Assembly (NCBI GenBank): GCA_011050075.1
Contig: DRGK01000017.1
Coordinates: 39,838-103,837 of the forward strand
Direction: 5' to 3'
Source of the DNA: Candidatus Jorgensenbacteria bacterium
GTDB taxonomy: Bacteria > Patescibacteriota > Minisyncoccia > UBA6257 > GWB1-50-10
DNA: 64,000 bases
This document shows, piece after piece, positions 25,992 through 43,603 of this stretch (the stretch's first letter is position 1; each line of letters begins with the position of its first letter). Under the pieces are notes generated by a model. The model had not been told where the DNA came from and ran no database searches. It was given only the letters and a program-made list of their open reading frames with translations. Position numbers and translations under genes: made by a program.

Positions 25992-27272
25992 ATGCGGGCG
26001 TACAACCCGACATTTGGTGTTCGTTCCTATGTTATAATACACTCAATGCGAAACATCAAATCGCTGAAACTGGCTGTTGAACGACAAATCGCCAACCCGC
26101 CCGGTGAAGTTTCTATTATTGAACTCGTTGATTTATTTGTGGAGTACGCATACAGCTCGCGTGCATCGGATATTCATATTGAACCGGGTGACGATAACGT
26201 AATAGTACGCCTGCGTATTGACGGTATCCTGCAGGATATTTTCACTTTACCCAAGGAACTGCAGTCAGAAGTGATCAGCCGCATCAAAGTACTTTCGGGA
26301 CTAAAAACGGATATTCATCACGTACCGCAGGATGGTAGGTTCAAAGCGAAGATAGGGGATGTGGAGGAGATTGATGTTCGTGTTTCCATTGCACCTACAT
26401 ACTCCGGTGAAAATGCAGTGATGCGTATCTTGGCGGAGACATCGCAGAAGTTCAAATTGGAAGACATTGGGTTTGATAAAAAGCAGTATCGTATGATAAT
26501 ACGCGCGATACACAAGCCGTATGGTATGATCCTCGCGAATGGTCCGACCGGCTCTGGAAAAACCACAACGCTTTACACGATTATCAAGGAGCTCAGTACC
26601 CGTGCGGTATCAATTATCACCATTGAGGACCCTATTGAATATTCTATTGAAGGCATTACTCAGATTCCCGTCAATGTACAGGCGGGGTTGAATTTTGCGA
26701 ACGGACTGCGTTCTATCTTACGGCAGGACCCGAACATTATCATGGTAGGGGAGATTCGCGACACCGAGACGGCGAGTATCGCGGTTAATGCGGCACTGAC
26801 CGGCCATCTCATGCTCTCAACGCTGCACACCAATGATGCGGCAACCACATTTCCGCGTCTTCTGGATATGGGTGTTCCTCCGTTTCTCGTCGCCTCAACA
26901 GTTAATATTGTTATTGCACAGCGTCTGATGCGAAAGGTATGCCAGAGTTGCCGGCAGCAGAAGTTCCTTTCTATTGCTGATATTGAACATCTTGGTCCGC
27001 TCGCCGAGGTATATATAGAAAAGAAAGTGTATACCGTAGGTGCCGGATGTGATGATTGTGACGGACTGGGTTATCGGGGCAGAGTTGGCATCTTTGAAGT
27101 ACTGTCGGTTAATGAGGAAATTCGTTCACTGATTGCTAACCGCTCAAGCGCTTCACAGATCAAGCAGGCGGCCGTAAAAAATGGTATGCATACCATGACT
27201 CAGGGAGCATTTGAAAAAGCAATACAGGGTGAAACGACCATTGAAGAAGTACTCCGTATGATATATGAGTAA
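25992..27272 (+). CDS. pilB: Type IV pilus assembly ATPase (PilB/GspE family)
   Basis: Walker A GPTGSGKTT; Asp/His boxes; tetracysteine CQSC…CDDC; GYRGRVGIFEVL; short form lacking the long N-domain. Confidence 0.85.
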   Translation: MRAYNPTFGVRSYVIIHSMRNIKSLKLAVERQIANPPGEVSIIELVDLFVEYAYSSRASDIHIEPGDDNVIVRLRIDGILQDIFTLPKELQSEVISRIKVLSGLKTDIHHVPQDGRFKAKIGDVEEIDVRVSIAPTYSGENAVMRILAETSQKFKLEDIGFDKKQYRMIIRAIHKPYGMILANGPTGSGKTTTLYTIIKELSTRAVSIITIEDPIEYSIEGITQIPVNVQAGLNFANGLRSILRQDPNIIMVGEIRDTETASIAVNAALTGHLMLSTLHTNDAATTFPRLLDMGVPPFLVASTVNIVIAQRLMRKVCQSCRQQKFLSIADIEHLGPLAEVYIEKKVYTVGAGCDDCDGLGYRGRVGIFEVLSVNEEIRSLIANRSSASQIKQAAVKNGMHTMTQGAFEKAIQGETTIEEVLRMIYE

Positions 27273-28368
27273 AAAACCGCGTAAGAATATACAAGTATCA
27301 CTCTTGCATTTTTTCAATGTTACGTTGATACCGTTACAGGAAAAGGTTAACTTTGCGCGCCATCTCTCAATAGGCATCAAAAGCGGCTTGTCTTTGCTCG
27401 ATACGTTGGATTTGATCAAACAGCAGACGTCGTCCAAGCGTTTTTCTGCGATGGTATCTCGTATCATGGAGGATATTAATAACGGCCAGTCATTAGCAGA
27501 TAGTCTGGAACGGTTTAATTATGTGTTCGGCCACCTGTTTATTAGCATGGTTCGCGTCGGAGAAGTTGGCGGGAACTTATCGGGAACGCTCGCGTATCTT
27601 TCTAACGAACTAAAAAAACAGAGAGAGCTTCATAATCGTGTGAAGTCGGCAATGATATACCCCGCGATTATTTTGATAGTGACGATAGGCATCACCGTGT
27701 TTCTCACTCTCTTTATTTTTCCTAAAATTCTCCCTATATTTCAAAGCTTGGGCGTACAGCTGCCGGCCAGCACACGGCTGATCATACAGACACTTTCATT
27801 TCTTGATAATTTTGGATTCTTGTTATTAGTCAGTATGGCGGTTTTTGCTATTGCGGTACGGGCGCTTCTATTTATACAGAAAGTTCGATACGGTATGCAC
27901 GCAGTGTCTTTGCGAATTCCATTTGTCTCGACGTTAATCATTAATGTAACCATTACGAGCTTTAGTCGTGTGCTCGCGGCGCTCCTCAAGAGTGGTATGA
28001 CACTACTGGACGCGCTCGTAGTTGTAAAAACAACTATCTCAAATTTGGTGTATCAGAAGCACGTCGAACAAATGATAGATGTTGTTCGACGTGGTGAAGA
28101 GATGACCAAGTACCTCAAGAAATATCCAAAACTATTCCCGCCGATGCTTGTCGGAATGATCAAGGTAGGTGAGGGAACCGGTAATTTAGAAGACAACCTG
28201 CTCTATCTTGCCGAGTACTACGAAAGCGAAGTTGATGAGACCGTCAATAACCTAACCACCATTCTTGAGCCGCTTCTCCTGCTCTTTATGGGTGTCATCG
28301 TTGGATTCATAGCGCTTTCCATTATCACACCGATTTATAAAGTAACGCAGGGACTAAACATTCGCTAA
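27265..28368 (+). CDS. pilC: Type IV pilus / type II secretion platform protein (PilC/GspF family)
   Basis: Two GspF repeats, 3 TM, ~367 aa; overlaps the pilB stop. Confidence 0.85.
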   Translation: MSKKPRKNIQVSLLHFFNVTLIPLQEKVNFARHLSIGIKSGLSLLDTLDLIKQQTSSKRFSAMVSRIMEDINNGQSLADSLERFNYVFGHLFISMVRVGEVGGNLSGTLAYLSNELKKQRELHNRVKSAMIYPAIILIVTIGITVFLTLFIFPKILPIFQSLGVQLPASTRLIIQTLSFLDNFGFLLLVSMAVFAIAVRALLFIQKVRYGMHAVSLRIPFVSTLIINVTITSFSRVLAALLKSGMTLLDALVVVKTTISNLVYQKHVEQMIDVVRRGEEMTKYLKKYPKLFPPMLVGMIKVGEGTGNLEDNLLYLAEYYESEVDETVNNLTTILEPLLLLFMGVIVGFIALSIITPIYKVTQGLNIR

Positions 28369-28853
28369 TGCTGTCCCTCAAACGTAAAACCTATAAACCC
28401 CTACCTACCGGCAGGCAGGTAAAATCTCAAAAAGGGTTCACTCTCCTTGAGATAATGATCGTTATTGGCCTCTTTGCTTTGCTCGTAGGCATTAGTATAC
28501 CGTTTGGACTTGATGTATACCGCAGCTACGTACTAATTTCCGAAACACGAAATATGGTTAGTTTCCTGCGACGCGCGGAGACGTTGTCTTTCACCAATAC
28601 CAGGAATGATTCGTATGGAGTTATGGTCATGAACGATCGATTCGTTGTGTTTCGTGGTGCGTCGTTTGCAACGCGTGATACTGCATTTGATGAAGAGTAT
28701 CTACGCTCGCCATTAGTAATCGTGTCGGGTATCGCGCATATTGTGTTTGCTGCGGTGACGGGAAGACCAGACATAATGGGTACCACAACATTCAGCAACG
28801 GCGTAAATGAACAAACAGTATTTATTAATGAACATGGCACACTTTTCTGGTGA
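28368..28853 (+). CDS. Prepilin-type (class III signal) pseudopilin with long basic leader
   Basis: …KPLPTGRQVKSQKG|FTLLEIMIVIGLFALLVG: Gly(-1), Phe(+1), Glu(+5) then a hydrophobic helix. Confidence 0.75.
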   Translation: MLSLKRKTYKPLPTGRQVKSQKGFTLLEIMIVIGLFALLVGISIPFGLDVYRSYVLISETRNMVSFLRRAETLSFTNTRNDSYGVMVMNDRFVVFRGASFATRDTAFDEEYLRSPLVIVSGIAHIVFAAVTGRPDIMGTTTFSNGVNEQTVFINEHGTLFW

Positions 28854-30249
28854 AAAGGGACAATCTCTCATAGAAATTCTTATTGCGTTCACACTCATCG
28901 TGCTTGGTATCGGGTCGGCGACGATACTGGTGTTTGGTGGACAAGGGCTGCTTATTGACAGGGGAAATACGGTACAAGCTCGTTCTCGTGCACAGGAAGG
29001 GTTACTTGCGGTAGAGCAGATGATACAGAACGATTGGGATTCGGTGTCAAATGGTACGTATGGCATTGTGTTCACCAACGGTACCTGGCAGCTATCCGGC
29101 GAAAGTACTATTGATGACCGATATACACGGTATGTCTCGGTAACCAGTATTGATGATAATCGGAAGGAGATTACAAGCAGTGTTGTATGGGAAACGGGTG
29201 GAGAAGGTTCCCGGATTGTTGAGTTTGTAACACTGGTTACCAACTGGCAAAATGTTGCACCGCCGTCACCGGATCCGGGAGATACGGGAGGTGGCGGAGT
29301 GAGCGGTAACTGGCAAAACCCGAGAACACTGGGTTCTGTTGATCTGGGTCCGGGAAATGAAGCATCAGACATTGATGTGATCAATAAGATCGTTTATATG
29401 TCTGCCACCGCGTCTTCTAAGAACAAGCCTGACTTCTTTATTATTGATGCAACCGATGGGGAAAATCCGGTAATGATATCTGAGCTTAATACCGGTCCGT
29501 CACTCAATTCCATTGATGCCAGCGGCAACTATGCATATGTGGCAAACGATGATGCGCAGGCACAGTTGCAGGTTATTGATGTGAGTGACATTAATAATCC
29601 TTCTATTACTGCGTCCCTTGAAGTTGCTGCTGACGCTGGAGGTACTGCTATATTCTTTACTAACGCAAAAATATATCTGGGCACCTACCAAAACGGTGCG
29701 GCTGAGTTTTATATCATTGATGTTTCGGACCCCTTAAACCCCAGCGTACTAGGCTCGTATGAAATGAACGGAACGGTGCGTGATATATATGTACGTAATA
29801 GTCGTGCATATATCACCGTTGAACGGGAAGTGGATACGGTAGCTATACTAAACGTTTCAACTCCTTCATCAATCGTATCGGAAGGAGGCGAATATATTGA
29901 TGAAGCATACGGTATCATGAGCATACGACCAGCACTCACCTTTATCGGCATTGATACTGATTTGGTTATTGCGGATACTGCGAATGCAGCCGCAGTGGCT
30001 ACAATTGGCTCTATCGGAATTGGCGGGAACGTCAATGATATTGCGGTGAGGGATTATCTCGTCTTTATTGCAACATCAAATAACAACAAAGAGTTCCAGA
30101 CAATTAACGTATCTGATCCAAGTAACCCATCAGTTCATTCTTCTTTTAATTTTTCGCAGGTTGGAACCGGTATTGATTACGAGGATAATATTGTCTACAT
30201 CTCAGTGAGAAGCAATGACGCTTTACGTATCATCACATCATCTCCATGA
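28807..30249 (+). CDS. Pilin-like protein fused to an LVIVD-repeat beta-propeller domain (candidate pilus tip/adhesin)
   Basis: N-terminus …GEKGQSLIEILIAFTLIVLG (prepilin-like); at least 4 LVIVD-type repeats (AYVANDDAQAQLQVIDVSDINNPS; IYLGTYQNGAAEFYIIDVSDPLNPS; AYITVEREVDTVAILNVSTPSS; VFIATSNNNKEFQTINVSDPSNPS). Confidence 0.65.
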   Translation: MNKQYLLMNMAHFSGEKGQSLIEILIAFTLIVLGIGSATILVFGGQGLLIDRGNTVQARSRAQEGLLAVEQMIQNDWDSVSNGTYGIVFTNGTWQLSGESTIDDRYTRYVSVTSIDDNRKEITSSVVWETGGEGSRIVEFVTLVTNWQNVAPPSPDPGDTGGGGVSGNWQNPRTLGSVDLGPGNEASDIDVINKIVYMSATASSKNKPDFFIIDATDGENPVMISELNTGPSLNSIDASGNYAYVANDDAQAQLQVIDVSDINNPSITASLEVAADAGGTAIFFTNAKIYLGTYQNGAAEFYIIDVSDPLNPSVLGSYEMNGTVRDIYVRNSRAYITVEREVDTVAILNVSTPSSIVSEGGEYIDEAYGIMSIRPALTFIGIDTDLVIADTANAAAVATIGSIGIGGNVNDIAVRDYLVFIATSNNNKEFQTINVSDPSNPSVHSSFNFSQVGTGIDYEDNIVYISVRSNDALRIITSSP

Positions 30250-30764
30250 AGACTCATAAACCCCTACCTACCGGCAAGCAAGTAAAATCTCAAAAAGGAT
30301 TCACGCTTATTGAAGCGCTTATCTATGCCACGCTATTAGGTATCTTTTTAGGCAGTGTCATTATTGTAGTTGGGAACATTCTTGCCTCTACCGATAGCAC
30401 ACTGGTGCGTAATGAGGTACTTGCCAATCAAGAGTTCGTTGAACAGAAACTTTCATGGCTTGCAGAACAGGCGACCGCGGTTACAGAACCACTCTCAGGA
30501 AGTTCCTCAACGCGAGTAGTTTTCACTGAACCGATATCCGGCACTAATCCGGCAATTTTTGAACTGCAGGACGGGAAAATTATGCTAACCCTCGGTTCCG
30601 GTGAAAGCGCTGCGCTGACCAATAATCGCGTGCGCGCGTCCGATTTCACCATTACCCACTACACATTAAACGGTGCATCACTGATACGAGTCTTATTTGG
30701 ACTTGAGCACATTGTCTACAGTCAAGTAACGAGCACGACCACACTCACCTTTATTATTCCGTAG
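30246..30764 (+). CDS. Prepilin-type pseudopilin with long basic leader (paralog of 28368..28853 at the N-terminus)
   Basis: MKTHKPLPTGKQVKSQKG|FTLIEALIYATLLGIF. Confidence 0.75.
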   Translation: MKTHKPLPTGKQVKSQKGFTLIEALIYATLLGIFLGSVIIVVGNILASTDSTLVRNEVLANQEFVEQKLSWLAEQATAVTEPLSGSSSTRVVFTEPISGTNPAIFELQDGKIMLTLGSGESAALTNNRVRASDFTITHYTLNGASLIRVLFGLEHIVYSQVTSTTTLTFIIP

Positions 30765-30767
30765 CAT

Positions 30768-31163
30768 ATGCAACACGATACATATCAACAGGGGTACGTA
30801 GCGGTTATGAGCGCTATTATCATTACCGCTATTCTGCTTGTCGTCGCATTGACCTTTAGTTCCAGTAGTTTTATGGGTAGGTTTGATACACAAGCAGTGG
30901 AATTCAAGATACTGACACGGAACTTAGCGCAGGGATGTATCGCGCATGCACAGTTAATGCTCGCGCTGGGAAGCTATACTGGCAATGAGGATGTGGTAGT
31001 GGGTGCATATACCTGCCGCGTCGTCTCCGTTACGCAGGGGAGCGGTATCATAACAGTGCAGGTAACTGCAATCATAGAGGACCACACTACAAATCTTGAA
31101 GCAGTCTTGGATAGCGCTACACTCGCTATTAATTCAGTTATAGAGATAAGTACGTTTGAGTAA
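30768..31163 (+). CDS. Membrane-anchored hypothetical protein in the pilus operon (PilX/minor-pilin-like?)
   Basis: N-terminal hydrophobic helix (VAVMSAIIITAILLVVAL) without a canonical G-F-x-x-x-E; operon position. Confidence 0.4.
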   Translation: MQHDTYQQGYVAVMSAIIITAILLVVALTFSSSSFMGRFDTQAVEFKILTRNLAQGCIAHAQLMLALGSYTGNEDVVVGAYTCRVVSVTQGSGIITVQVTAIIEDHTTNLEAVLDSATLAINSVIEISTFE

Positions 31164-31230
31164 ATATGGTATACTATCAATAGATAAGCTTTTTTAAGAA
31201 AAGGTCGTGTTTTTTTCAACATTATAGTAA

Positions 31231-31701
31231 ATGTCTAAAAATAGAGTGCAAAAAGTTAAAACAGAAGGTGGTTTTACATTAATTGAACTTTTGGTTGTTA
31301 TCGGCATCATCGCCATCCTTGCGGGTGTGGTGATTGTTGCCCTAAACCCGGCGCGACAGTTCGCGCAGGCACGCAACAGCCAACGTTGGTCAAATGTAAA
31401 TGCGATTTTGAATGCTGTAGGTCAGAACTTAGCTGATAACCGTGGGATATTCACCTGTGCTGCAGGAGTTATTCCAACGTCTGCGACAAATATGTCATCC
31501 TCTACATATGATATAGCGACATGTATTGTACCAACATACATGCCGACTATGCCATTTGACCCAAGTGATGCGAGCGCATACTACACCGATACGGCTGATT
31601 ACAACACGGTGTACAGTATTGTACGCAGTGCGACGACCAGCCGAATTACTGTCTCTTCACCATCAGCAGAATTAGAAGAAGCAATTGCAGTAACGAGATA
31701 G
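31231..31701 (+). CDS. pilA: Type IV major pilin (PilA-like) with prepilin leader
   Basis: MSKNRVQKVKTEG|GFTLIELLVVIGIIAILAGVVIV; own promoter and strong terminator; C-terminal Cys pair (FTCAAG…IATC). Confidence 0.8.
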   Translation: MSKNRVQKVKTEGGFTLIELLVVIGIIAILAGVVIVALNPARQFAQARNSQRWSNVNAILNAVGQNLADNRGIFTCAAGVIPTSATNMSSSTYDIATCIVPTYMPTMPFDPSDASAYYTDTADYNTVYSIVRSATTSRITVSSPSAELEEAIAVTR

Positions 31702-33623: not shown

Positions 33624-35117
33624 ATGACTAAGTTTAAAACATACTATCTTTACTTCACCGTCTTTGTAACGGGTGCAGTAGTATTGATAATTGAAATCCT
33701 GGGAACAAGAATTCTCGCACCATTTTATGGTACAACAATTTTTGTGTGGTCTTCACTTCTCAGTGTCGCGCTCGGTTTTCTCGCGCTCGGCTATTGGGTG
33801 GGTGGTATTTGGGTTGATAGGAAGCCAAGCTTCTCCAATTTTTATGGGATCGTTTTTCTTGCTGCCACCACACTAGTACTGGCTATTAAACTGAACCGAG
33901 TTGTTCTCGTTTTCTCAGACCAATTCGGTTTGAAGTTTGGTCCACTCATTGCTTCGGTTTTACTTTTTGCGATACCACTTTTCTTATTGGGCATGATAAC
34001 GCCTTTTGCTATACGTTTGCGTACTAAATTAATAGAAAATGTGGGAACACGATCTGGGGGTATTTTTGCTATAGCGACCATTGGATCATTGATAGGAGCT
34101 CTACTCTCGGGTTTCTTCCTCATACCCATTTTATCTATAACGAATATTTTTTATATCACCACCTTACTTCTTGTAGTAATATCTGTTCTTGGTCTTTTAA
34201 TTTCGGGAAAAGAACAAATTAGTGGGAACCGTTATAGATGTCTCTTACTTTTCTTGATTTTTCTTGCTGTACTCTCAATTCCTTTGTTTAATATTGAAGC
34301 ACATAAGAATTCAAGAATTCTTTTTCAAAAACAAGGTTTCTACGGTGACATAAAAGTAGTTGAAATCGGAGAATCACGTTGTCTTGTAGTTAATGGGATG
34401 ACACAGACCTGTGTAAAAATAGAAACATATGACGGAGGTCTGTCATACATAGAAGAAATAGGGAGGATTTTAGCACTACGGCCGCAAGACAAAGACATCT
34501 TGCTTTTAGGACTTGGTGGAGGAAGTATAATGTCTTTTTTTTCAGAAATTCAGGAAATAGACATAATTGAAATAGCCCCCAAAATTATACATATCGCAGA
34601 AAGATTTTTTAACTTTCATCCAGACTTAAATCAGCGCATTATAATAGATGATGCCCGCAGTTTTTTGAGGAGGACAGACAAAAAATACGACCTTATTATT
34701 GCCGACGTGTTTTCGGCTACTACAATCCCTCTCCATCTTTCCACAAAAGAGTATTTTGAACTTTTAAAGAGTCACTTACATTCGGAGGGTCTTGTTCTTT
34801 TTAATTTTATTGGTCGTACTGGGCCAGAGGATCGGTATACAACCTCCTTTGTACGGACGCTACGTTCCGTTTTTCCCTCGGTGATAATTACAAGTCCAGT
34901 ACCAGGACTACAAAGTATGGTTCTCCATGCCTCGGTTGATGAGTCATACGCTCCTCGTATAGGTGAGGAGTTTTACGAAGTACCGGTAGCTGACGATATG
35001 GGAATACTATTGACTGATAATAAAAACCCCCTGGAATTGCTCGCCTTACCTAACCTTGAAGTGTTGCGAAGGAATTTAAAGTCATCCGGTGGTTTTGATT
35101 TGTTTTTCACCAACTGA
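33624..35117 (+). CDS. Membrane-anchored spermidine synthase-like (polyamine aminopropyltransferase fold) protein
   Basis: ~7 TM N-terminal domain fused to LLLGLGGGSIM…IDIIEIAPKII…IIADVF (SpeE/AdoMet-MTase-like). Confidence 0.6.
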   Translation: MTKFKTYYLYFTVFVTGAVVLIIEILGTRILAPFYGTTIFVWSSLLSVALGFLALGYWVGGIWVDRKPSFSNFYGIVFLAATTLVLAIKLNRVVLVFSDQFGLKFGPLIASVLLFAIPLFLLGMITPFAIRLRTKLIENVGTRSGGIFAIATIGSLIGALLSGFFLIPILSITNIFYITTLLLVVISVLGLLISGKEQISGNRYRCLLLFLIFLAVLSIPLFNIEAHKNSRILFQKQGFYGDIKVVEIGESRCLVVNGMTQTCVKIETYDGGLSYIEEIGRILALRPQDKDILLLGLGGGSIMSFFSEIQEIDIIEIAPKIIHIAERFFNFHPDLNQRIIIDDARSFLRRTDKKYDLIIADVFSATTIPLHLSTKEYFELLKSHLHSEGLVLFNFIGRTGPEDRYTTSFVRTLRSVFPSVIITSPVPGLQSMVLHASVDESYAPRIGEEFYEVPVADDMGILLTDNKNPLELLALPNLEVLRRNLKSSGGFDLFFTN

Positions 35118-35131
35118 AACACTCATTATCT

Positions 35132-36547
35132 ATGCCCCGCTTTTTAAATAGAAATTCCTTAGTTTTCATAGCACTTGCTACACTTGCAACTTTGCTTGTC
35201 TTTACCGTTTTGCCCTCTATCACAAATGCAGGCGGTACGTTTACCACCAACCAAGACAGTTTTAGGTTTAAAGGCGATACAGGCGGAGAAACGGCAACAG
35301 ACTGGATTGATGCCGAAGACACGAATATTACTCAAGCAAAAAACAGCAACTTTCGCATACGTATTCACTTTCATGAATCAGGTAATGCAGCCGGCGATGT
35401 GACACCTCTTTTAGAGTACAAAACTGCCTCTGGTAATGCATGTGCTAATACGACAGGGTGGACAACTATTACAACTGCAACGACAAATGCATTTGCTCTT
35501 GTCGATTCGTCACAGTTTGTTGAAGCAGTTGCAACTACTGAACAGTTATCAAGCTTTGGCGGAATAGGTTTTGTTGCTGGAGAACTCTTGGACCAAACTA
35601 ATCCCGGTACAATCATTACCATCGGTGCAAAAAACGAAAGTGAGTATGTATGGAACATGAAAGCAACGGACAATGCGGTCGATGGCACGGCGTACATATT
35701 TCGGGTGAGTAATAACGGCACCAACTTAACAAACTATAATGCCTGCCCGCAGGTAACAGTTCCTGCGGGCAATGCACCGCCCGTTGTTTCAAACGTTGCG
35801 TTGGATGGAGGAACAGCAATCACGCTCACAGAAAACACAACTAAAGCTGTTAGCGCTACGGCAGATGTATCAGATCCGAACGGCGCTGACGATATTATTT
35901 CAGCGACCTCAACCATCTACCGTTCCGGTGTCGGTGCGGGATGTACCGCTGATGATGAGAATTGCTACAAAATAGCGAGCTGCACGTTTTCTGGTGCGAC
36001 GAGTACCGTGACCTGCACGGCGAATATACAGTTCTTTGCCGACCCGACCGATGCAAGCTCTACTGCTTATTCTGCTCAGGATTGGCAGGCAGAAATTACG
36101 GTAACCGACTCTGCCAGTGCAACCGGTGCATCGAGCACTCTATCCGGCGTAGAGCTCAATACACTCTGGGCTATCGATATAACCGCAACTATTAACTACG
36201 GGGCTGTTAGTCCAACCGCAGATACAGGGAGTACAAATCAAAGCGTTACGGTTACCAACACAGGTAATGCGGCGATCGATATAGAGGCATCGGGGACTGA
36301 TATAACGCTTGGCGGTAGTACGATAGGAGTTGCCAATCAAAAGTATGCGACCTCCACCTTTACGTACTCGAGCTGTACAATCTGTACGGCACTTTCCTCA
36401 ACCCCCGCTGCATATGAGGTTGATTTACTCAAGCCGACCTCGGCCACGCCGGTTACAGATTTAATCTACTGGGGACTTGCGGTGCCAAACGGCACTGCGC
36501 AAGGGGTGCACAGCGGAACCAATACCTTTACCGCAATAGGCGATTAG
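35132..36547 (+). CDS. Secreted Thr/Ala-rich surface protein, paralog A
   Basis: Signal peptide; conserved Cys-containing module (RSGVGAGCTADDENCY); C-terminal VTVTNTGN… CARDB/DUF11-like module; ends …GTNTFTAIGD. Confidence 0.55.
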   Translation: MPRFLNRNSLVFIALATLATLLVFTVLPSITNAGGTFTTNQDSFRFKGDTGGETATDWIDAEDTNITQAKNSNFRIRIHFHESGNAAGDVTPLLEYKTASGNACANTTGWTTITTATTNAFALVDSSQFVEAVATTEQLSSFGGIGFVAGELLDQTNPGTIITIGAKNESEYVWNMKATDNAVDGTAYIFRVSNNGTNLTNYNACPQVTVPAGNAPPVVSNVALDGGTAITLTENTTKAVSATADVSDPNGADDIISATSTIYRSGVGAGCTADDENCYKIASCTFSGATSTVTCTANIQFFADPTDASSTAYSAQDWQAEITVTDSASATGASSTLSGVELNTLWAIDITATINYGAVSPTADTGSTNQSVTVTNTGNAAIDIEASGTDITLGGSTIGVANQKYATSTFTYSSCTICTALSSTPAAYEVDLLKPTSATPVTDLIYWGLAVPNGTAQGVHSGTNTFTAIGD

Positions 36548-36593: not shown

Positions 36594-37541
36594 ATGAGAA
36601 GTACACTTTCTCTTCTTTTAAAAGTTTATATTTTCGCGATTCCCCTCGCGCTGCTACTGGTCGGGGGACTTTTAATGCTCACAAACACTATTTTAGCAGG
36701 CACTTCAAGCACATCAGTAACCGTTCAAGGCGCTGTCCCCACAGTTACCGTTGTTAACATTTCTCCCGATCCAATTATCCCGACCGAAAATGCAACGACG
36801 AGCATTACCATTACTGCAACAATTTCCGATTCAAACGGATGCGATGATGTATTCACAAGCGGTACTATCGCGGTCGCACTCTATCGGTCAGGTGTTGGTG
36901 CCAGTTGCTCGGTCGATGACAACAACTGTTATCAGAACATCACTTGGGCGGAGGTTGGCAATACCTGCGGGGGCGGTGCAGATACAAGCGGGGATATGGT
37001 TGCCACGGCAACGATATGGTACTTTACCGAAGCAACCGATGCGAGTTCAACATACTCAGGGGAAACATGGCAGGCTCAGGTCAAGGCAGTTGATGAGTCT
37101 AATGCAAGCTCTACCGCTACCGACGCGTCGCCCCCTGAGCTCAATTCGGTATATGCTCTCACTGTTGACAGTGCCATTGCGTACGGTTCTATGTCAGCAG
37201 ATGCTACGAGTACCTTGTCTGAGATTGGACAGTCAACGACGACGGTAACCAACACGGGAAATTACAAGATTGATACCGAGGTATCGGGTACCGATATGAC
37301 GGGTTCAGGTACCATTATTGCAAGCAAACAAAAATATGCTACCTCATTGTTAGGATATGAATCACTTACATACACACTCTCAACGTCTGCTACTGCAAGA
37401 GATTTAAATATTGTGAAAGCGACCTCTTCTTCTACGCCGTCAACGCAAGATACCTACTGGGGTATTTCTATCCCTAGCGCTCAGGCGGAAGGAGGTTATA
37501 GCGGAACCAACACATTTACCGCTATCTATTCAGCCGATTAG
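36594..37541 (+). CDS. Secreted Thr/Ser-rich surface protein, paralog B of 35132..36547
   Basis: Signal peptide; same modules (RSGVGASCSVDDNNCY; TTVTNTGNYKID…; ends …GTNTFTAIYSAD). Confidence 0.55.
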   Translation: MRSTLSLLLKVYIFAIPLALLLVGGLLMLTNTILAGTSSTSVTVQGAVPTVTVVNISPDPIIPTENATTSITITATISDSNGCDDVFTSGTIAVALYRSGVGASCSVDDNNCYQNITWAEVGNTCGGGADTSGDMVATATIWYFTEATDASSTYSGETWQAQVKAVDESNASSTATDASPPELNSVYALTVDSAIAYGSMSADATSTLSEIGQSTTTVTNTGNYKIDTEVSGTDMTGSGTIIASKQKYATSLLGYESLTYTLSTSATARDLNIVKATSSSTPSTQDTYWGISIPSAQAEGGYSGTNTFTAIYSAD

Positions 37542-37576: not shown

Positions 37577-38608
37577 TTGTCCGCGCTTTGTTTTCTTAGT
37601 ATGATTACAGATATGCATATACGTTCTCTAACGTTGATTGTCATTACGTTGTCCTTACTTGCACCATCGGTAGTGGGTGCGTTCGGGGTTTCACCTCCAT
37701 TTATCACAGTACATAAACTTGTGGCTGGCTCGCGTTATGAAACAACAATTACCCTCGTTCAGGGACAGCCGGATGTTGATTTGGAAGTTAAGGCAGTGTT
37801 TGATGTACCTGAAAAGATTAGAGAATGGTTCAGTGTTGATAAGGGATATCAGTTTATAATCCCCGCTGGCGTTCAGCAGTTCCCGATACAAGTTGTTATT
37901 CAGGTTCCGAAAGATACCGGTCTTGGTATTTATAACGGGCACTTACGGATTAACACTGTTCCACAACGGAAAGAAGGTGAACAGATCGCAATCTCCGTTG
38001 GCGCACGCATCGATATCAACATTACGGTAGGGGATGATATTGTCGTTGATTTTTCAGTTAAGAAAATTGACATCTCTGACATTAGAGAAAACGAGTCACC
38101 TCAGATCGTTGTCACTATAGAGAATACGGGGAATGTTCCCATTACACCGGACAGAGCAACATTTGACCTGCTTGATAAGTACGGGGAAGTACGGCTCGGC
38201 TTTGCACAAACGGAGGACTTGCCAGAGACGCCAGCCTTTGAAACTAAAACTTTTGTCGTAGCATTTCCCATAGACATTAAGCTCGGCGTGGGAGAGTACT
38301 GGGGTGAAGCACGATTATATAGAGGTGGGACAATAATTGGGGATGTAAAAACTATCTTCAATGTAACTCCAAGACCAAATTATATACTCTTTATTGGTAT
38401 TGGCTTACTTATTATTGGAGCCGGTGTTTCTATATTTATATTTAAAAAGAAAGCAAGTCGTAAGCCAACGAGTCGTAAGAGAACAGTAACAAAAAAGAAA
38501 GCTGTAAGGAAAACTGCCCGTAAACCAAAAAAACAAGTTAGTAGTAAGAAAAAATTGAATAAGAAAAAGACAGTAAAAACAAAGCAAAAGAAGAGCATTG
38601 GCTCATGA
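37577..38608 (+). CDS. Secreted CARDB-like surface protein with C-terminal TM anchor and poly-lysine cytoplasmic tail
   Basis: Signal peptide; …VVTIENTGNVPITPD…; TM (ILFIGIGLLIIGAGVSIFIF), then KKKASRKPTSRKRTVTKKKAVRK…. Confidence 0.5.
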   Translation: MSALCFLSMITDMHIRSLTLIVITLSLLAPSVVGAFGVSPPFITVHKLVAGSRYETTITLVQGQPDVDLEVKAVFDVPEKIREWFSVDKGYQFIIPAGVQQFPIQVVIQVPKDTGLGIYNGHLRINTVPQRKEGEQIAISVGARIDINITVGDDIVVDFSVKKIDISDIRENESPQIVVTIENTGNVPITPDRATFDLLDKYGEVRLGFAQTEDLPETPAFETKTFVVAFPIDIKLGVGEYWGEARLYRGGTIIGDVKTIFNVTPRPNYILFIGIGLLIIGAGVSIFIFKKKASRKPTSRKRTVTKKKAVRKTARKPKKQVSSKKKLNKKKTVKTKQKKSIGS

Positions 38609-40149
38609 AATGGTACGCGTTTACGGCAGTTTGTTTCGCAGTAATCGGACTCATGATAACGGTGGGCATTACAAATGCTGGAACAGCTTCCGTAACGGTA
38701 ACGGTAACGCTTGCCGAGTGCTCTGACAGTATTGACAACGACGGTGATTTTTTAACCGACTATCCCAATGACACGGAGTGCGATTCGGGTACCGATAACA
38801 GTGAAAACATTGCCGGCACCGAGACGCATGCAACATCTACTATTGAAACAAGCGGGGGCAGTTTTTCTTTTGATAATGCTGATAGTTTAGCCGTTGATTT
38901 TACGTTTCAGAACGGGTTTCATGGTAGTTCAGTACGGTTATTCGTGAACTCGTATGCAACTAGCTCTTTTGAATCGAGCAAGCCAGCACCTTCTGGGAAG
39001 AGCTTCGTTGGTAAAACATACGACATCATTCTGTACGAGAACGCATCACCGAATAATTCTATTGCAACAACTTCCAAAGCTATTACCATCGTGATGCAAT
39101 ATTTGGATAGTGATGTAAGCAGTATCGATGAAAGCAACGTTCTGCCGTATCGTTGGAGTACAAGCACATCGGCGTGGGCGATAATATCTGGCAGCTCACT
39201 TGATACATCAAACAATAAAGTAACTTTTTCTACCACCGATTTCAGTTCATTTAGCTTGCTCGGCACAAACCTTTCTGAATTCCAATGCAGTGACGGTATT
39301 GACAATGATGGGGATGGTAAGATTGACTATCCATCCGACCCTGGGTGTTCATCAACAACCGATGATAATGAAACAGACCCGCAGCAGGCACCAGGTGGCG
39401 GTGGAGGCGGCGGTGCTACGATAACAGCACCGCCTCAGGTTACATTCAGCGGGTTAGCATATCCCGGCAGTAAAGTAACAATACTGAAAGATGCTCAAGT
39501 AGCTGCGGTAACTATAGCCGGTCCCGATGCGAAATTTAAAGCGGGCCTGTCCAAACTCTCAACCGGAAACTACAATTTCGGCATTTGGGCTGCTGATACA
39601 TCCGGTCGAAGATCGGTTACACATACATTTGCACTGAGCGTTAAGCCCGGCTCTTCTGTTACGGTAAGCGGCATTTTCCTGCCTCCTACCATATCAATAG
39701 ACAAAAGTGAGGTAAGGAAAGGTGATGTATTGGGTATTGCGGGGCAGAGCGCTCCTGAGGCTAACGTTTCTCTTATTGTTCATTCACATTCTATTGTGAA
39801 GAAGGTGACCGTTGATAAGAGCGGGGCGTGGTTTTATAAACTGGACACCACCGAGCTTGAGTATGGTAAGCACTCCACACAGGCGAAGTCAGAAACGGAA
39901 AACGATATCAGTTCACTCTCGCAACTACTGCTTTTCAAAGTTGGTACAAAAAGCAAGAAAGCCATTCCCTTAGCAGTAGTAGAACTTAAGGGTGACGTGA
40001 ACAGCGATGAGAAAGTTAATTTGGTTGATTTCAGTATCGCAGCGTATTGGTATAAAAGACCGTCCCCCCCATCCGCCGTTGATTTAAACAACGATGGGAA
40101 AGTTGATTTAGTGGACTTCAGTATTATGGCATACTGGTGGACGGGATAG
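38605..40149 (+). CDS. Secreted protein with Ca-binding Asp-rich Cys-flanked motifs and a C-terminal dockerin domain
   Basis: Signal peptide; CSDSIDNDGDFLTDYPNDTEC and CSDGIDNDGDGKIDYPSDPGC; C-terminal GDVNSDEKVNLVDFSIAAYWY…DLNNDGKVDLVDFSIMAYWW, a dockerin type-I-like duplicated Ca-loop/helix. Confidence 0.65.
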   Translation: MKWYAFTAVCFAVIGLMITVGITNAGTASVTVTVTLAECSDSIDNDGDFLTDYPNDTECDSGTDNSENIAGTETHATSTIETSGGSFSFDNADSLAVDFTFQNGFHGSSVRLFVNSYATSSFESSKPAPSGKSFVGKTYDIILYENASPNNSIATTSKAITIVMQYLDSDVSSIDESNVLPYRWSTSTSAWAIISGSSLDTSNNKVTFSTTDFSSFSLLGTNLSEFQCSDGIDNDGDGKIDYPSDPGCSSTTDDNETDPQQAPGGGGGGGATITAPPQVTFSGLAYPGSKVTILKDAQVAAVTIAGPDAKFKAGLSKLSTGNYNFGIWAADTSGRRSVTHTFALSVKPGSSVTVSGIFLPPTISIDKSEVRKGDVLGIAGQSAPEANVSLIVHSHSIVKKVTVDKSGAWFYKLDTTELEYGKHSTQAKSETENDISSLSQLLLFKVGTKSKKAIPLAVVELKGDVNSDEKVNLVDFSIAAYWYKRPSPPSAVDLNNDGKVDLVDFSIMAYWWTG

Positions 40150-40168: not shown

Positions 40169-41068
40169 ATGAAACAATTCTTGATCAGTATTTGTCTCTT
40201 ATTCTTCGCATTCGGCATAAGTATGGTGAGTGCCGTTGAGCTATCTTTTGATTCTCCCGTATATAAAATAGGACTGGGGAAATTTATTGCTATTGATGTC
40301 TTAGTAGATTTCCAAGGTGAGGCAATCAATACATTAGAAGGAAGAATACACGTTCCCGAATCTTTTGATATTGTAAACACAAACACTGCGGGATCGGTGA
40401 TAAATCTCTGGATTCAGGAACCGAAAATAGAAGTTAATAGTGTCTATTTCTCCGGCATCATACCGGGTGGATTTGGTAGTCAGCTTAGTGACGGTACGGG
40501 CATCGGTAACGAGTTGGAGATATTAACTATTACATTAGAAGCCAAGAGAGAAGATGCAAACAGCATTACGGCAGGGGACACCAAAGCACTTTTGAACGAT
40601 GGATTTGGAACGGAAACCGATATAGCTACAAAGCCATGGTTTTATGAAATTTCTGAAAGCTATACCGGGGGAGGCGTTGAAGCAGTAATAGATAGCGAGC
40701 CGCCCGGGAATTTTAAGCCGGAAGTTACCAGAAGTGAAACCGTGTTTTCAGGGCAATACTTTGTAGTTTTCAGTACACAAGATAAAGAATCGGGAATGAA
40801 ACGCTATGAGGTTGCAGAACAGCGCGGAAGAAAAACTGAGAACTACTCAGTTTTGGACTGGAAAATTACAAAAAGCCCCTATATTTTGGAAGACCAGACA
40901 TTAAGGAGCTACATCTACGTAAAAGCAATTGACAATACGGGGAATGAGATAATTGCAGTAGTTCCGCCGCATAACCTATTAGTACGGTATTGGTATGTAC
41001 TCATTTTGTTTATAATAATAGTAGGAATTAGTTTCGCTTATACTAAAACAAAGCGAAAGAATTCATGA
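40169..41068 (+). CDS. Membrane-anchored cohesin-like domain protein 1
   Basis: Signal peptide; beta-rich domain alignable to type-I cohesin (…GRIHVPESFDIVNTNTAGSVINLWIQEP…); C-terminal TM (YVLILFIIIVGISFAY) plus KTKRKNS. Confidence 0.5.
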   Translation: MKQFLISICLLFFAFGISMVSAVELSFDSPVYKIGLGKFIAIDVLVDFQGEAINTLEGRIHVPESFDIVNTNTAGSVINLWIQEPKIEVNSVYFSGIIPGGFGSQLSDGTGIGNELEILTITLEAKREDANSITAGDTKALLNDGFGTETDIATKPWFYEISESYTGGGVEAVIDSEPPGNFKPEVTRSETVFSGQYFVVFSTQDKESGMKRYEVAEQRGRKTENYSVLDWKITKSPYILEDQTLRSYIYVKAIDNTGNEIIAVVPPHNLLVRYWYVLILFIIIVGISFAYTKTKRKNS

Positions 41069-42147
41069 AGAAAAAGACATTACTCTTAAGTACGATACTG
41101 ATTTTATTTGGCGTGGTTACAACTGCCCACGGGGCTAACTTGTATTTCTCTCCATCGGGAGGAAGTTTCTATAAAGGCGAGAATTTTACCATTGGTGTTT
41201 TCGTAAATACAGACAGGGCCACTAATGCCATCTCCGGCGTCTTAACGTTTCCCACTAGATACGTTGAGGCGGTGAGCGTGCGCAAGAGTAATTCCATAGT
41301 CAATCTTTGGGTTCAGGAACCCTCATTTTCCAATATAGGTGATTTCGGCAATATCAGGTTTGAAGGTGTTATTCTCAACCCAGGCTTTACTGGCACCAGA
41401 GGAAAAATACTTGATGTTGTTTTTCGAGTAAAGAACAATGGTTTTATGAATTTGGAATTCGTTGAGGTCGCTATTCTAGCTAACGATGGGTTAGGAACAA
41501 ATATAGCAGTTCCGGACGGTGAAGCTAGCTTTGTACTAAAATCAAAACCGGTATACTCACCGGAGTCTGTAGAAATAACTGGAGGAAAACAAGAATTATC
41601 TGCAACCTCAACGCCACCGATTATAATAGTCAGGGAAGTAAGACCAGAACCACCATCAGGTATACTTGGATTATGGGAAGTTTTACCGACCTGGATAAAA
41701 ACCATCACTTTGGCTCTTGTTGGTCTGGCAACAATTCTACTCGGACTTGTTATTATCAGTCTCGGTATAATTGTTTTGATTTGGCTTTGGAGTTATATAT
41801 GGCGTAGGAGGAATATAATTGAGGGTTGGCTTGTATCATTTCCGAGAGCTGTAAATCATTTTACACGCAGAGTCCTTGTGTTTATACGCGGAGCAGAAAA
41901 GGAAATAAAAGGAGATTTGAAATATAGCATTCCACGAGTGAAAGACATAGTTAAGGAAGCAGGGCGCGAGCCACCGTTAAAGCAGTTAGTGAAAGATTAC
42001 TTTAGCTCAATACGTAAAATCATAAAACGCTTTTTCACGAAAAATGAATCGTGGCAAGAGAGTGTACTAGATGACATATCAAATTCTAAAACACCTGATC
42101 CTAAAAGGTCTGAAGATATAATACAGGAAGAGGAAGAACAGCTATGA
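41065..42147 (+). CDS. Membrane-anchored cohesin-like domain protein 2 with conserved cytoplasmic tail
   Basis: …GENFTIGVFVNTDRATNAISGVLTFPTRYVEAVSV… / …GKILDVVFRVKNNGFMNLEFVEVAIL… resemble CipA cohesin strands; TM; ~100-aa basic tail. Confidence 0.5.
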   Translation: MKKKTLLLSTILILFGVVTTAHGANLYFSPSGGSFYKGENFTIGVFVNTDRATNAISGVLTFPTRYVEAVSVRKSNSIVNLWVQEPSFSNIGDFGNIRFEGVILNPGFTGTRGKILDVVFRVKNNGFMNLEFVEVAILANDGLGTNIAVPDGEASFVLKSKPVYSPESVEITGGKQELSATSTPPIIIVREVRPEPPSGILGLWEVLPTWIKTITLALVGLATILLGLVIISLGIIVLIWLWSYIWRRRNIIEGWLVSFPRAVNHFTRRVLVFIRGAEKEIKGDLKYSIPRVKDIVKEAGREPPLKQLVKDYFSSIRKIIKRFFTKNESWQESVLDDISNSKTPDPKRSEDIIQEEEEQL

Positions 42148-42461
42148 TAAAGGCGATATTTTTCTTTATTGTGGGAGTGGCAGCAGTAATTGTGTTACTG
42201 CTCGGTGTTGGTTTAGTGGTAGTTGTCTTGGTCTGGTTTTGGAACTACGGACGATACGAAGGTGGAAAACTTCTTAGGAAAGTCCTTGTCTCCGCAAGGG
42301 CAACGGAGGAAGAAATCGAGAGTGATGTGCAGTATAGCGTCCGGAGAGTAAAGAAAACCCTTGAAAAAACCAAGAAGAATCTATCATTGAAAGAAATGGT
42401 GAATGCTTACTGGAAATCGGTTGAAAAAATTGTAGAGCGCTTTCTTACGAAAAACAAGTAA
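42144..42461 (+). CDS. Small membrane protein, paralog of the TM plus cytoplasmic tail of 41065..42147
   Basis: WFWNYGRYEGGKLLRKVLVSARATEEEIESDVQYSVRRVKKTLEK… parallels WLWSYIWRRRNIIEGWLVSFPRAVNHFTRRVLVFIRGAEKEIKGDLKYSIPRVKDIVKE…. Confidence 0.5.
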   Translation: MIKAIFFFIVGVAAVIVLLLGVGLVVVVLVWFWNYGRYEGGKLLRKVLVSARATEEEIESDVQYSVRRVKKTLEKTKKNLSLKEMVNAYWKSVEKIVERFLTKNK

Positions 42462-42472
42462 CGGGGTGTCTA

Positions 42473-42506
42473 AAAAGATTAATGACATACGTGTCGTTAA
42501 TCTTTT
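42473..42506. terminator. Bidirectional terminator hairpin between convergent genes
   Basis: AAAAGATTAAtgacatacgtgtcgTTAATCTTTT. Confidence 0.55.
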
Positions 42507-43603
42507 AGGCTTTCAATAATAGCAACTTCTAGGGGGATAATAGGGAACTGGCTATAGCGCATCTGACTATACGCAGTAATGAGCGCTCTTAAGAGTTCAA
42601 GGTGTTTTTCTGTAAAAAGCTTTGCGTGATCACTAAGCTTTTTTAAGTGTTCGTTTATAAGTTCTTTTTCAAATTCTTTCTTCATGCTCGGACTAAAAGA
42701 AAGCACTGCGGTACGTCGGAGGTATTGAATAACATCCTTAGTAAACTGAACAAGGTTGTATCCCTTGTCATTAACTTCAGCTATATGCTTGAGTGCTTTA
42801 TCAATATCGCTAGTTAATAAATATCCGGAAAACTCAGAAAGAGCACTGAATCCAATTTTACCAACCATTTCTTCTACTTCATCAATAGTAATATCTTTAT
42901 CGCCCCCCGCGGTGAGCTGGTCTAAGAGCGACTCTGCATCACGAAAACTTCCCTCTGCTGCTGCTGCAATGAGCTCCAACGCTTCACTTGAGATTTTCAT
43001 TTTCTCCTTCTTGACGATTGATCTGAGTTTGATAATCAACTGCTGCAGCGATACACGTTTAAACTGAAACTGTTGGGTACGAGAGAGGATCGTGACAGGT
43101 ATCTTTTCGATTTCTGTGGTGGCGAGAATGAGAATAATATACTTCGGCGGCTCCTCCAGTGTTTTTAAAAGCGCATTGAAGGCATCCTTGGTCATCATGT
43201 GTACTTCATCAATAATGAATACCTTATAGCGCGTGTTAGACGGTGAAACACGGATGTTTTCCTTCAAACTGCGTATTTCATCAATACCACGATTCGATGC
43301 AGCATCAATTTCAATAACATTCAGATTACGCCCATCACTAATTTCCTGACATACCGAGCATTTGTTACACGGCTCTCCTTTCTTACTGAACACAGCATCT
43401 TTCTGTCGGGTAAGACAGTTTGCCACCTTTGCAATGAGCCGTGCGGTTGTTGTCTTTCCAGTTCCGCGCGGACCGGAGAAAAGATATGCATGTGCAATCT
43501 TGTCTTGTCGTACCGCTTCTTGAAGAATGCGGACAATGAGGTCTTGTCCGAGTATGTCGCTAAATGTTGACGGACGATATTTACGATATAGTGCAAGTGC
43601 CAT
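42497..43603 (-). CDS. dnaX: DNA polymerase III subunit gamma/tau (short form)
   Basis: MALALYRKYRPSTFSDILGQ…GPRGTGKTT…; Zn module CNKCSVCQ. Confidence 0.85.
   Translation of the reverse strand: MALALYRKYRPSTFSDILGQDLIVRILQEAVRQDKIAHAYLFSGPRGTGKTTTARLIAKVANCLTRQKDAVFSKKGEPCNKCSVCQEISDGRNLNVIEIDAASNRGIDEIRSLKENIRVSPSNTRYKVFIIDEVHMMTKDAFNALLKTLEEPPKYIILILATTEIEKIPVTILSRTQQFQFKRVSLQQLIIKLRSIVKKEKMKISSEALELIAAAAEGSFRDAESLLDQLTAGGDKDITIDEVEEMVGKIGFSALSEFSGYLLTSDIDKALKHIAEVNDKGYNLVQFTKDVIQYLRRTAVLSFSPSMKKEFEKELINEHLKKLSDHAKLFTEKHLELLRALITAYSQMRYSQFPIIPLEVAIIESLKD

Follow-up and report, generated by a model that had tools for sequence, protein, structure and literature searches.

The 64,000-nucleotide stretch of a Candidatus Jorgensenbacteria genome analysed here (assembly GCA_011050075.1, contig DRGK01000017.1, positions 39,838 to 103,837 of the forward strand; hereafter the window) contains three adjoining genes, A, B and C. 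A and B encode putative membrane-anchored proteins whose N-terminal domains almost certainly adopt cohesin folds, as judged from structural models, and C encodes a small protein related to the C-terminal part of B. Directly upstream lies a gene for a surface protein that ends in a dockerin, and the succession of dockerin protein, A and B is a near-invariant three-gene cassette, not a multi-enzyme scaffold. The explanation that we consider, on balance, probable is that these genes belong to a surface operon with a non-cellulosomal cohesin-dockerin anchoring module, in which C would act as a co-anchor or competitor. The genes and the dockerin are the following (aa, amino acids; TM, transmembrane):

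38605-40149, plus strand: dockerin-bearing surface protein, 514 aa, with N-terminal signal/anchor, Ig-like Big_6 domains, two acidic repeats and C-terminal dockerin
39991-40146, plus strand: type I dockerin of this protein, residues 463-514, with the C-terminal end ...FSIMAYWWTG
40169-41068, plus strand: A, 299 aa, with signal peptide, cohesin, Fn3/Ig-like domain, TM helix and short tail
41065-42147, plus strand: B, 360 aa, with signal peptide, cohesin, linker, TM helix and helical cytoplasmic tail
42144-42461, plus strand: C, 105 aa, with TM helix and cytoplasmic tail, no ectodomain

We compared the window with 86 fetched Patescibacteria loci (87 loci in all; 1.07 Mb, with dockerin counts covering flanking sequence only), in which domains were mapped with hidden Markov models built from our own alignments. 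In 70 of the 73 loci with enough upstream sequence, the neighbour directly upstream of the B-type gene is an A-type gene (cohesin plus Fn3); in 61 of 62 loci, A in turn directly follows a gene whose product ends in a dockerin, and 68 of the 69 dockerin open reading frames (ORFs) in the 1.07 Mb occupy this position of the cassette. The N-terminal part of the dockerin protein is a conserved family in its own right (71 loci), and its C-terminus is strikingly uniform over divergent lineages, with ...DFSIMAYYWTG always forming the final residues. The presence upstream of a putatively cognate dockerin, which an earlier reading from sequence alone had missed, makes the cohesin reading of A and B functionally meaningful, and these sequence comparisons suggest that the neighbouring dockerin protein is quite probably the partner of the cohesins. 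A previous, sequence-only reading of the window had described the products as a scaffold, a term that does not suit proteins with a single cohesin each, a nearby dockerin protein without an enzyme domain, and a fixed set of three genes. A search of representative proteins also returned a protein of 644 aa (P0247) in which an A-type protein is fused to a B-type protein in one ORF, with a topology that would be consistent (three TM segments, both cohesins outside); it is a real fusion or the product of a lost stop codon, and it links A and B either way.

Over residues 462-508, the product of 38605-40149 scores 29.2 bits for Pfam Dockerin_1 (PF00404; gathering cutoff, 22.9), with E = 1.1e-6. Its dockerin consists of two near-identical repeats of a Ca-loop and a helix, DVNSDEKVNLVD-FSIAAYWY and DLNNDGKVDLVD-FSIMAYWW, with Asp or Asn at loop positions 1, 3, 5, 9 and 12, such that both marks of a type I dockerin, a Pfam gathering score and a duplicated Ca-loop/helix, are present. 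The same protein matches Big_6 (E = 1.1e-5), and Pfam and NCBIfam scans found no enzyme or catalytic domain in it. It also contains two Cys/Asp-rich acidic double-disulfide repeats (residues ~40-70, CSDSIDNDGDFLTDYPNDTEC, and ~224-251, CSDGIDNDGDGKIDYPSDPGC), which reach E = 1.7e-9 for the NCBIfam model acid_disulf_rpt (NF033662), just under its cutoff; the dockerin orthologs at most other loci are shorter (~350 aa) and seemingly lack these repeats.

The N-terminal domains of A and B are related to each other, with 27% identity over 158 aa (BLASTP, E = 4e-9) and a Smith-Waterman z-score of 11.8 (1000 shuffles), and they have in common an NLW[IV]QEP segment, the W and P of which are invariant or nearly so in both families. 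We built AlphaFold2 models of A and B with family alignments and compared them to the PDB using Foldseek. The model of B contains a confident beta-sandwich (predicted local distance difference test score, pLDDT, >90 over residues 24-160), for which every one of the 50 best PDB matches is a cohesin (E = 5e-8 to 1e-4, probability 1.00), with target TM-scores of up to 0.81 on PDB cohesins; many of these matches were solved as dockerin complexes (5nrm, 4dh2, 6kge and 2vn6, among others). The model of A has a mean pLDDT of 90.8, and its best match is 2w1n (E = 9e-10), the paired cohesin and FN3 modules of C. perfringens GH84C; the A. fulgidus cohesin 2xdh comes second, and the further matches are mainly cohesins, including cellulosomal ones, with target TM-scores of ~0.6-0.7; the adhesin domain of CLIPPER (9ifr), a related beta-sandwich, is also among the matches of A. 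The sequence-only reading had proposed both the common N-domain and its cohesin-like nature, and on both counts the comparisons agree with it; the invasin/Big fold, which it had named as the contrary outcome, is ruled out, the best PDB matches being cohesins. By this comparison, both domains conform to the structural definition of a cohesin, a nine-stranded jelly-roll beta-sandwich that can be superposed on solved members.

Sequence identity between solved cohesins and A or B is just 9-19%, and no Pfam or NCBIfam family was matched by A, B or the tail. Relatives of the two proteins carry more of a cohesin signal. The A family has ~350 members, some of which are named 'cohesin domain-containing protein' by NCBI; some more distant long-form relatives of B carry precomputed PF00963 matches. 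Pfam Cohesin is the commonest family in the relatives, at sub-threshold scores (10 of 49 for B, best E = 1.5e-4; 10 of 51 for A, best E = 3.9e-5). The parts of A, B and C are as follows:

A, residues 1-23, plus strand: signal peptide
40226-40660, plus strand: cohesin of A, residues ~20-164 (AlphaFold2, Foldseek)
40682-40975, plus strand: Fn3/Ig-like domain of A, residues ~172-269
40982-41050, plus strand: TM helix of A, residues ~272-294
B, residues 1-23, plus strand: signal peptide
41131-41547, plus strand: cohesin of B, residues 23-161
B, residues 162-205, plus strand: low-confidence linker
41689-41805, plus strand: long TM helix of B, residues ~209-247, with a juxtamembrane LPxWxK motif
41806-42060, plus strand: conserved basic helical tail of B, residues 248-332, before an acidic C-terminal extension (333-360)
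42147-42245, plus strand: TM helix of C, residues 2-34
42246-42458, plus strand: tail of C, residues 35-105, C being paralogous to B 209-328

Computed hydrophobic segments cover residues 1-28 and 267-295 of A, 5-24 and 206-247 of B, and 1-37 of C, and hydropathy and charge are consistent with a putative type I topology for A and B (signal peptide, a single TM segment and basic residues behind it) and with a putative N-out/C-in topology for C. The claim that A and B both end in a TM anchor stands for A, in which the TM helix is followed by a basic tail of 7-8 residues (TKTKRKNS), and falls for B, in which ~113 residues follow it. Similarly, the ~100-aa basic tail ascribed to B is recovered in its conserved part (residues 243-330, net charge +12) and does not extend to the final 30 residues (net charge -7). 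The hydrophobic segments of B and C are unusually long for a single span (34-42 residues) and rich in Gly and other small residues, with G220, G227 and G234 of the B TM helix at heptad spacing; such an anchor could be a tilted helix, an oligomeric helix or no simple single span.

B proteins occur in two forms. Most loci encode a long B of ~580 aa, composed of a cohesin, Fn3-like and Ig domains, a TM segment and a charged helical tail, and 15 loci, including the window, encode a short form in which a linker takes the place of the extra ectodomains and the tail is of another type. Homology between the tails of the two forms was considered and not detected beyond the TM segment, the only part that hhalign aligned (33 columns, 9% identity). 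The tail of the short form contains the motifs AEKExxGDxxY and IIKRFFTxN, in which E and D are invariant and W, W, Y, R, F and N nearly so; with a spacing of i, i+4, i+7, E, D and Y should lie on one helical face, and the final helix is strongly amphipathic. A profile search of 1.84e9 representative proteins gave 42 matches only, nearly all of them C-termini of B-type proteins, and by this sequence measure the short-form tail is a small unnamed domain family specific to B-type proteins. Its model suggests that the most likely role is oligomerisation, association with the inner membrane surface or binding of a cytoplasmic partner.

The third product, C, had been read as a stand-alone paralog of the TM segment and tail of B, and pairwise alignment leaves little room for another view. 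Identity between the B tail and C is 35% over 118 aa with the TM segment and 42% over 62 aa without it (BLASTP, E = 4e-17 in both cases); without the TM segment, the alignment scores 139 vs. 25.4 +/- 4.8 in 2000 shuffles (z = 23.7), and the TM segments alone give z = 7.7. The boundary of the duplication is sharp, in that C-family proteins begin at the WIK(T) juxtamembrane motif that precedes the TM segment of B. The tail of C has a net charge of +8 and retains E57, D61, Y64, R99, F100 and N104, which are all of the conserved residues of the tail family. Orthologs of C were found in five genomes, all in the subclade of the window: the window itself, L005 (108 aa), L006 (101 aa), L087 (P0122) and L088 (P0253). 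In 5 of 5, C lies directly downstream of B, with a 4-nucleotide (nt) overlap or a gap of at most 8 nt. Among the 87 loci, no tail-only paralog outside the window clade was found next to long-form B or other B genes; the tail-only paralog is a trait of one narrow subclade, not of the cassette generally.

Several other candidates were dismissed. Short matches in the full HMMER search (P0245, P0252, P0258) are mostly truncated B proteins, P0266 lies on an uninformative 1.1-kb contig, and weak Vpu, DUF3810 and LiaS matches on C or the tails were attributed to the composition of a TM segment plus an amphipathic helix. In L087, a close relative of the window (1.1-kb metagenome contig, 1-593), the B linker contains an in-frame stop (…TEGNQ*LSSTSTPP…), and the gene call there includes only a 145-aa ORF for TM segment and tail (P0245), with C behind it; B may be a pseudogene or naturally split here, or the stop may stem from a sequencing error. 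In C-bearing genomes, B (window 42061-42144; L005, L006, P0002) continues after RFFTKN with an acidic extension and the motif NE(S/K/R)W; where a C gene is lacking, short-form B mostly stops shortly behind RFFTKN. The acidic extension of B may complement the basic tail of C, a weak correlation from a small sample.

The three plus-strand ORFs of A, B and C were confirmed, and so were the 4-nt overlaps reported for them: the genes are co-directional and tightly packed, and both junctions are ATGA overlaps (ttcATGAag at 41065-41068 between A and B, ctATGAtaa at 42144-42147 between B and C). A Shine-Dalgarno-like GGAAGAGGAAG stands 7-17 nt 5' of the ATG of C. Beyond C lie two further features:

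42464-42514, unstranded: AT-rich hairpin, likely a bidirectional terminator, between the stop codons of C and the convergent dnaX-like gene
42497-43603, minus strand: dnaX-like gene, convergent with C

The hairpin folds at -21.3 kcal/mol (z = -6.06; equally stable shuffles, 0 of 200), and its strength and position ahead of the convergent dnaX-like stop indicate that C closes the transcription unit. A promoter scan of the window yielded sites no commoner than in shuffles. A Candidatus Jorgensenbacteria metagenome-assembled genome encodes a protein with 100% identity to B, which places the window in a CPR/Patescibacteria genome. In the public annotation, A (P0124, 281 aa) begins 18 codons later, at the Met in …GISMVSAVEL, a start that would cost it the signal peptide; the longer ORF with its start at 40169 is backed by an ortholog of 298 aa (P0125, 73% identical, 99% coverage).

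In the explanation that we favour, the locus would be the distal end of a cell-surface operon that encodes a dedicated, non-cellulosomal anchoring module. The Ig-domain dockerin protein would be exported and kept on the cell by Ca2+-dependent docking to the cohesins of A and/or B, both of which would be type I membrane proteins with the ectodomain outside, one TM helix, and the C-terminus inside. The cytoplasmic domain of B is predicted to be basic and to comprise two helices, with an E-x3-D-x2-Y face and an amphipathic RFFTxN helix. C would have arisen when the 3' end of B, from the juxtamembrane WIK motif on, was duplicated in tandem in a single subclade, and it would have been retained as a cohesin-less copy of the anchor that is translated together with B. 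It would most likely insert N-out/C-in and pack with B through TM and tail helices, thereby adding anchor subunits without a cohesin or competing for a ligand of the tail. The ORFs with their paralogy, the cohesin folds, the match to dockerin, the near-invariant order of the genes and the purifying selection acting on C are shown by the analysis; cohesin-dockerin binding, membrane topology, contact between B and C and the role of the tail are what we infer here. That C serves B as a co-anchor or decoy, as the sequence-only reading had suggested, is plausible and would fit the adjacency of the two genes, their likely translational coupling, the conserved TM segment, purifying selection and the kept residues; co-assembly of C with B is, from the sequences, a serious possibility that falls somewhat short of probable.

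Several observations weigh against this explanation. Neither A nor B matches Pfam Cohesin (PF00963) even at E <= 1, and comparison of both with PDB sequences returned noise only, so that their membership among the cohesins rests on predicted structure and on weak matches in relatives. Binding of the dockerin, by A, by B or by both, is a prediction, for which the gene adjacency and the highly conserved dockerin C-terminus are indirect evidence. C is absent after B in most genomes with short-form B (L001, L002, L004, L007-L014), which indicates that it is dispensable for the core system, and of the five C-bearing genomes known, three are short contigs. The AlphaFold2 model of the B tail is of moderate confidence (pLDDT 50-85), and the anchor length of 34-42 residues makes a single-span topology an assumption.

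If C were a relic in decay, left by a tandem duplication of B and deprived of the ectodomain and of any function, its limitation to one narrow subclade, its absence from most genomes with the same form of B, and its slightly faster divergence (48-57% identity between C proteins vs. 61-63% between B tails of the same genome pairs) would be as expected. We consider this very improbable, given that dN/dS between the window and L087 is 0.25 for C (105 codons; 0.34 for the B tail), that the frame of C is intact in five genomes although their B proteins diverged to 53% identity, that the residues invariant in the family are all kept, and that the start is preceded by the Shine-Dalgarno-like sequence. 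Moreover, neighbour-joining places the C proteins in one clade (99% bootstrap) apart from the co-resident B tails, which indicates a single old duplication, since retained, with no later gene conversion. Purifying selection together with the retention of conserved residues points to a functional protein, and by these sequence measures C is a retained partial duplicate of B, neither artefact nor relic. A functional C might still act independently of B, as a small membrane protein that serves as decoy or buffer for a ligand of the B tail and makes no contact with B. We regard this as unlikely, albeit less so than decay: C conserves the polar E-x3-D-x2-Y face and RFFTxN, as suits a specific binding site better than it does a generic coiled coil, and C has 10-25 residues fewer than B from the TM segment to the first tail helix, with different Gly positions in the TM segment. 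However, C adjoins B in the same direction in all five genomes, at the close spacing given above, the TM conservation between B and C fits helix-helix packing, and no candidate ligand is known for an independent C.

The other alternative concerns A and B themselves. Their cohesin-like domains might not bind dockerin at all, A and B being adhesins or Ig-like proteins that bind carbohydrate or a host, and the adjacency to the dockerin gene would then reflect shared regulation. The missing Pfam Cohesin match, the low identity to solved cohesins and the presence of 9ifr among the matches of A are compatible with this possibility, to which we assign little weight: it has to be set against the near-invariant gene order (61 of 62 loci), the extreme conservation of the dockerin C-terminus beside invariant surface-loop motifs in both cohesins, the essential lack of other dockerin ORFs in the 1.07 Mb of flanking sequence, and the fact that every top structural match is a true cohesin, in many cases from a structure that includes a bound dockerin. 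Beyond docking as such, the cassette could conceivably be a Patescibacteria-wide envelope-spanning device in which a receptor-like B would couple surface events, such as loading of or pulling on the dockerin Ig-stalk upon contact with a host or particle, to the cytoplasm via its tail, and C would tune this coupling through mixed oligomers or competition for a partner; this is a speculative extension of the anchoring explanation that we hold to be improbable.

The dockerin, A, B and C genes are the downstream part of a longer co-directional cluster that begins at 35132, in the order P1, P2, P3, dockerin protein, A, B, C:

35132-36547, plus strand: P1, 471 aa, secreted, beta-rich, first gene of the co-directional cluster
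36594-37541, plus strand: P2, 315 aa, secreted, beta-rich, paralog of P1
37577-38608, plus strand: P3, 343 aa, with signal peptide, two Ig-like domains, C-terminal TM segment and Lys-rich tail

P3 overlaps the dockerin gene by 4 nt. P1 and P2 are 40% identical over 290 C-terminal aa (BLASTP, E = 2e-47), and the pair occurs in the same gene order in L001 (1495-5069); a two-copy family analogous to P1/P2 occupies positions -2 and -3 in 37 loci, and analogous families are present at positions -1 to -3 in 23-37 other loci. P3-related genes were identified by jackhmmer in 29 loci, mostly at position -1 to the dockerin gene. Of 28 aligned relatives in the P3 family, 17 match PF06030 (WxLIP_PGBD, DUF916-type; best E = 3e-7), and three relatives scored singly all fell under the 27.3-bit PF06030 cutoff (best, 24.2 bits); P3 of the window does not match PF06030. 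P1 and P2 match no Pfam family, and no WxL domain was found in them or their relatives. By analogy, the resemblance of these upstream genes to a Firmicutes WxL cluster is suggestive.

Farther upstream, 4-9 kb from the cluster, lies a type IV pilus-like set (25992-31701). It encodes an ATPase resembling PilB (25992-27272), a platform protein resembling PilC (27265-28368) and, in five genes, proteins like pilins or pseudopilins with GFTL(I/L)E motifs. Linkage of the cassette to type IV pilus genes was rejected, as PilB was found in one other locus and PilC and pilins in none. On the same strand, 15 nt 5' of P1, a gene at 33624-35117 encodes a membrane protein resembling a fused major facilitator superfamily (MFS) transporter and spermidine synthase (NF037959, E = 4.7e-57); this neighbour is also found in L001 and two further loci (four in all).

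Patescibacteria (candidate phyla radiation, CPR) are mostly uncultured, very small and probably host-attached, and their surface biology is largely obscure. A dockerin/cohesin/cohesin cassette in near-fixed order is a concrete candidate for a core surface-attachment structure of many CPR lineages, and the WxLIP-like genes that often adjoin it are candidates likewise. Cohesin-dockerin biology would be extended to a TM-anchored form with a conserved cytoplasmic domain, unlike cellulosomal anchors, and the tail-only paralog offers a small natural experiment on the role of the tail. If the receptor-like reading of B were true, the tail would be a new signalling or assembly domain; if none of the readings holds, the locus is one more set of hypothetical surface proteins.

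Among described systems, the upstream genes are closest to the WxL clusters of Firmicutes, which combine a small and a large WxL protein with a WxLIP (DUF916, DUF3324 and TM segment) that is their TM-anchored partner (PMC10599100). P1 and P2 are similarly a large and a small paralog with a common C-terminal domain, followed by a TM protein with two Ig-like domains; unlike in WxL proteins, no WxL domain is detected in them, and WxL clusters have not been described with cohesin or dockerin genes. In the one literature library searched, which is no proof of novelty, we found no paper linking cohesins or dockerins with Parcubacteria or CPR in the present sense, and none in that library linking WxL with CPR. 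The one mention for Patescibacteria concerns a Saccharibacterium in which a dockerin-domain protein is essential (PMC10633639), a protein that is not counted here as related to the cassette. Four features differ from described systems and were not found described in that library: anchoring by a TM helix, a conserved cytoplasmic tail, a fixed cassette in Patescibacteria and a tail-only paralog.

The locus differs from a cellulosome in having one cohesin per protein, no match to a carbohydrate-binding module (CBM), S-layer homology (SLH) module or LPXTG motif, and anchoring by TM helices, as well as in the lack of dockerin-bearing enzymes, the sole dockerin protein of the window being non-catalytic (related loci surveyed, 1.07 Mb). 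Anchoring scaffoldins (OlpA, OlpC and SdbA of C. thermocellum, ScaE of R. flavefaciens) are closer, in that a cell-bound cohesin tethers a dockerin component, as would be the case here, and the best structural matches include 4dh2 and 3ul4, from the C. thermocellum proteins. Anchors of the OlpA/OlpC/SdbA/ScaE type use SLH modules or sortase for attachment to the Gram-positive wall, and they tether enzyme-loaded scaffoldins. In contrast, A and B have a TM helix only, with no SLH module, LPXTG, enzyme or CBM, and the operon encodes two paralogous single-cohesin anchors instead of one multi-cohesin protein.

The closest relatives in kind are non-cellulosomal cohesins (2xdh and 2w1n; cohesin-like 2jh2 and 2vo8), which, as here, are single cohesin modules outside a cellulosome, without cellulases or CBMs. 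Peer et al. 2009 is said to have found cohesin and dockerin modules outside cellulosomes in all three domains of life. The cohesin plus Fn3 of A fits 2w1n best, and 2xdh, the A. fulgidus cohesin, is the second match of A and the 17th of B; the dockerin, like non-cellulosomal and usual ones, has two duplicated Ca-loop/helix segments. Classical type I dockerins have Ser-Thr at positions 10 and 11 of the Ca-loop, whereas both loops of the dockerin of the window have Leu-Val at these positions. In contrast to the known non-cellulosomal modules, A and B are each predicted to sit on their own TM helix, B with a cytoplasmic domain that is conserved; the dockerin is carried by a fixed Ig-domain ortholog instead of an enzyme or toxin; and, over an entire bacterial radiation, the three genes stay together as a near-invariant cassette.

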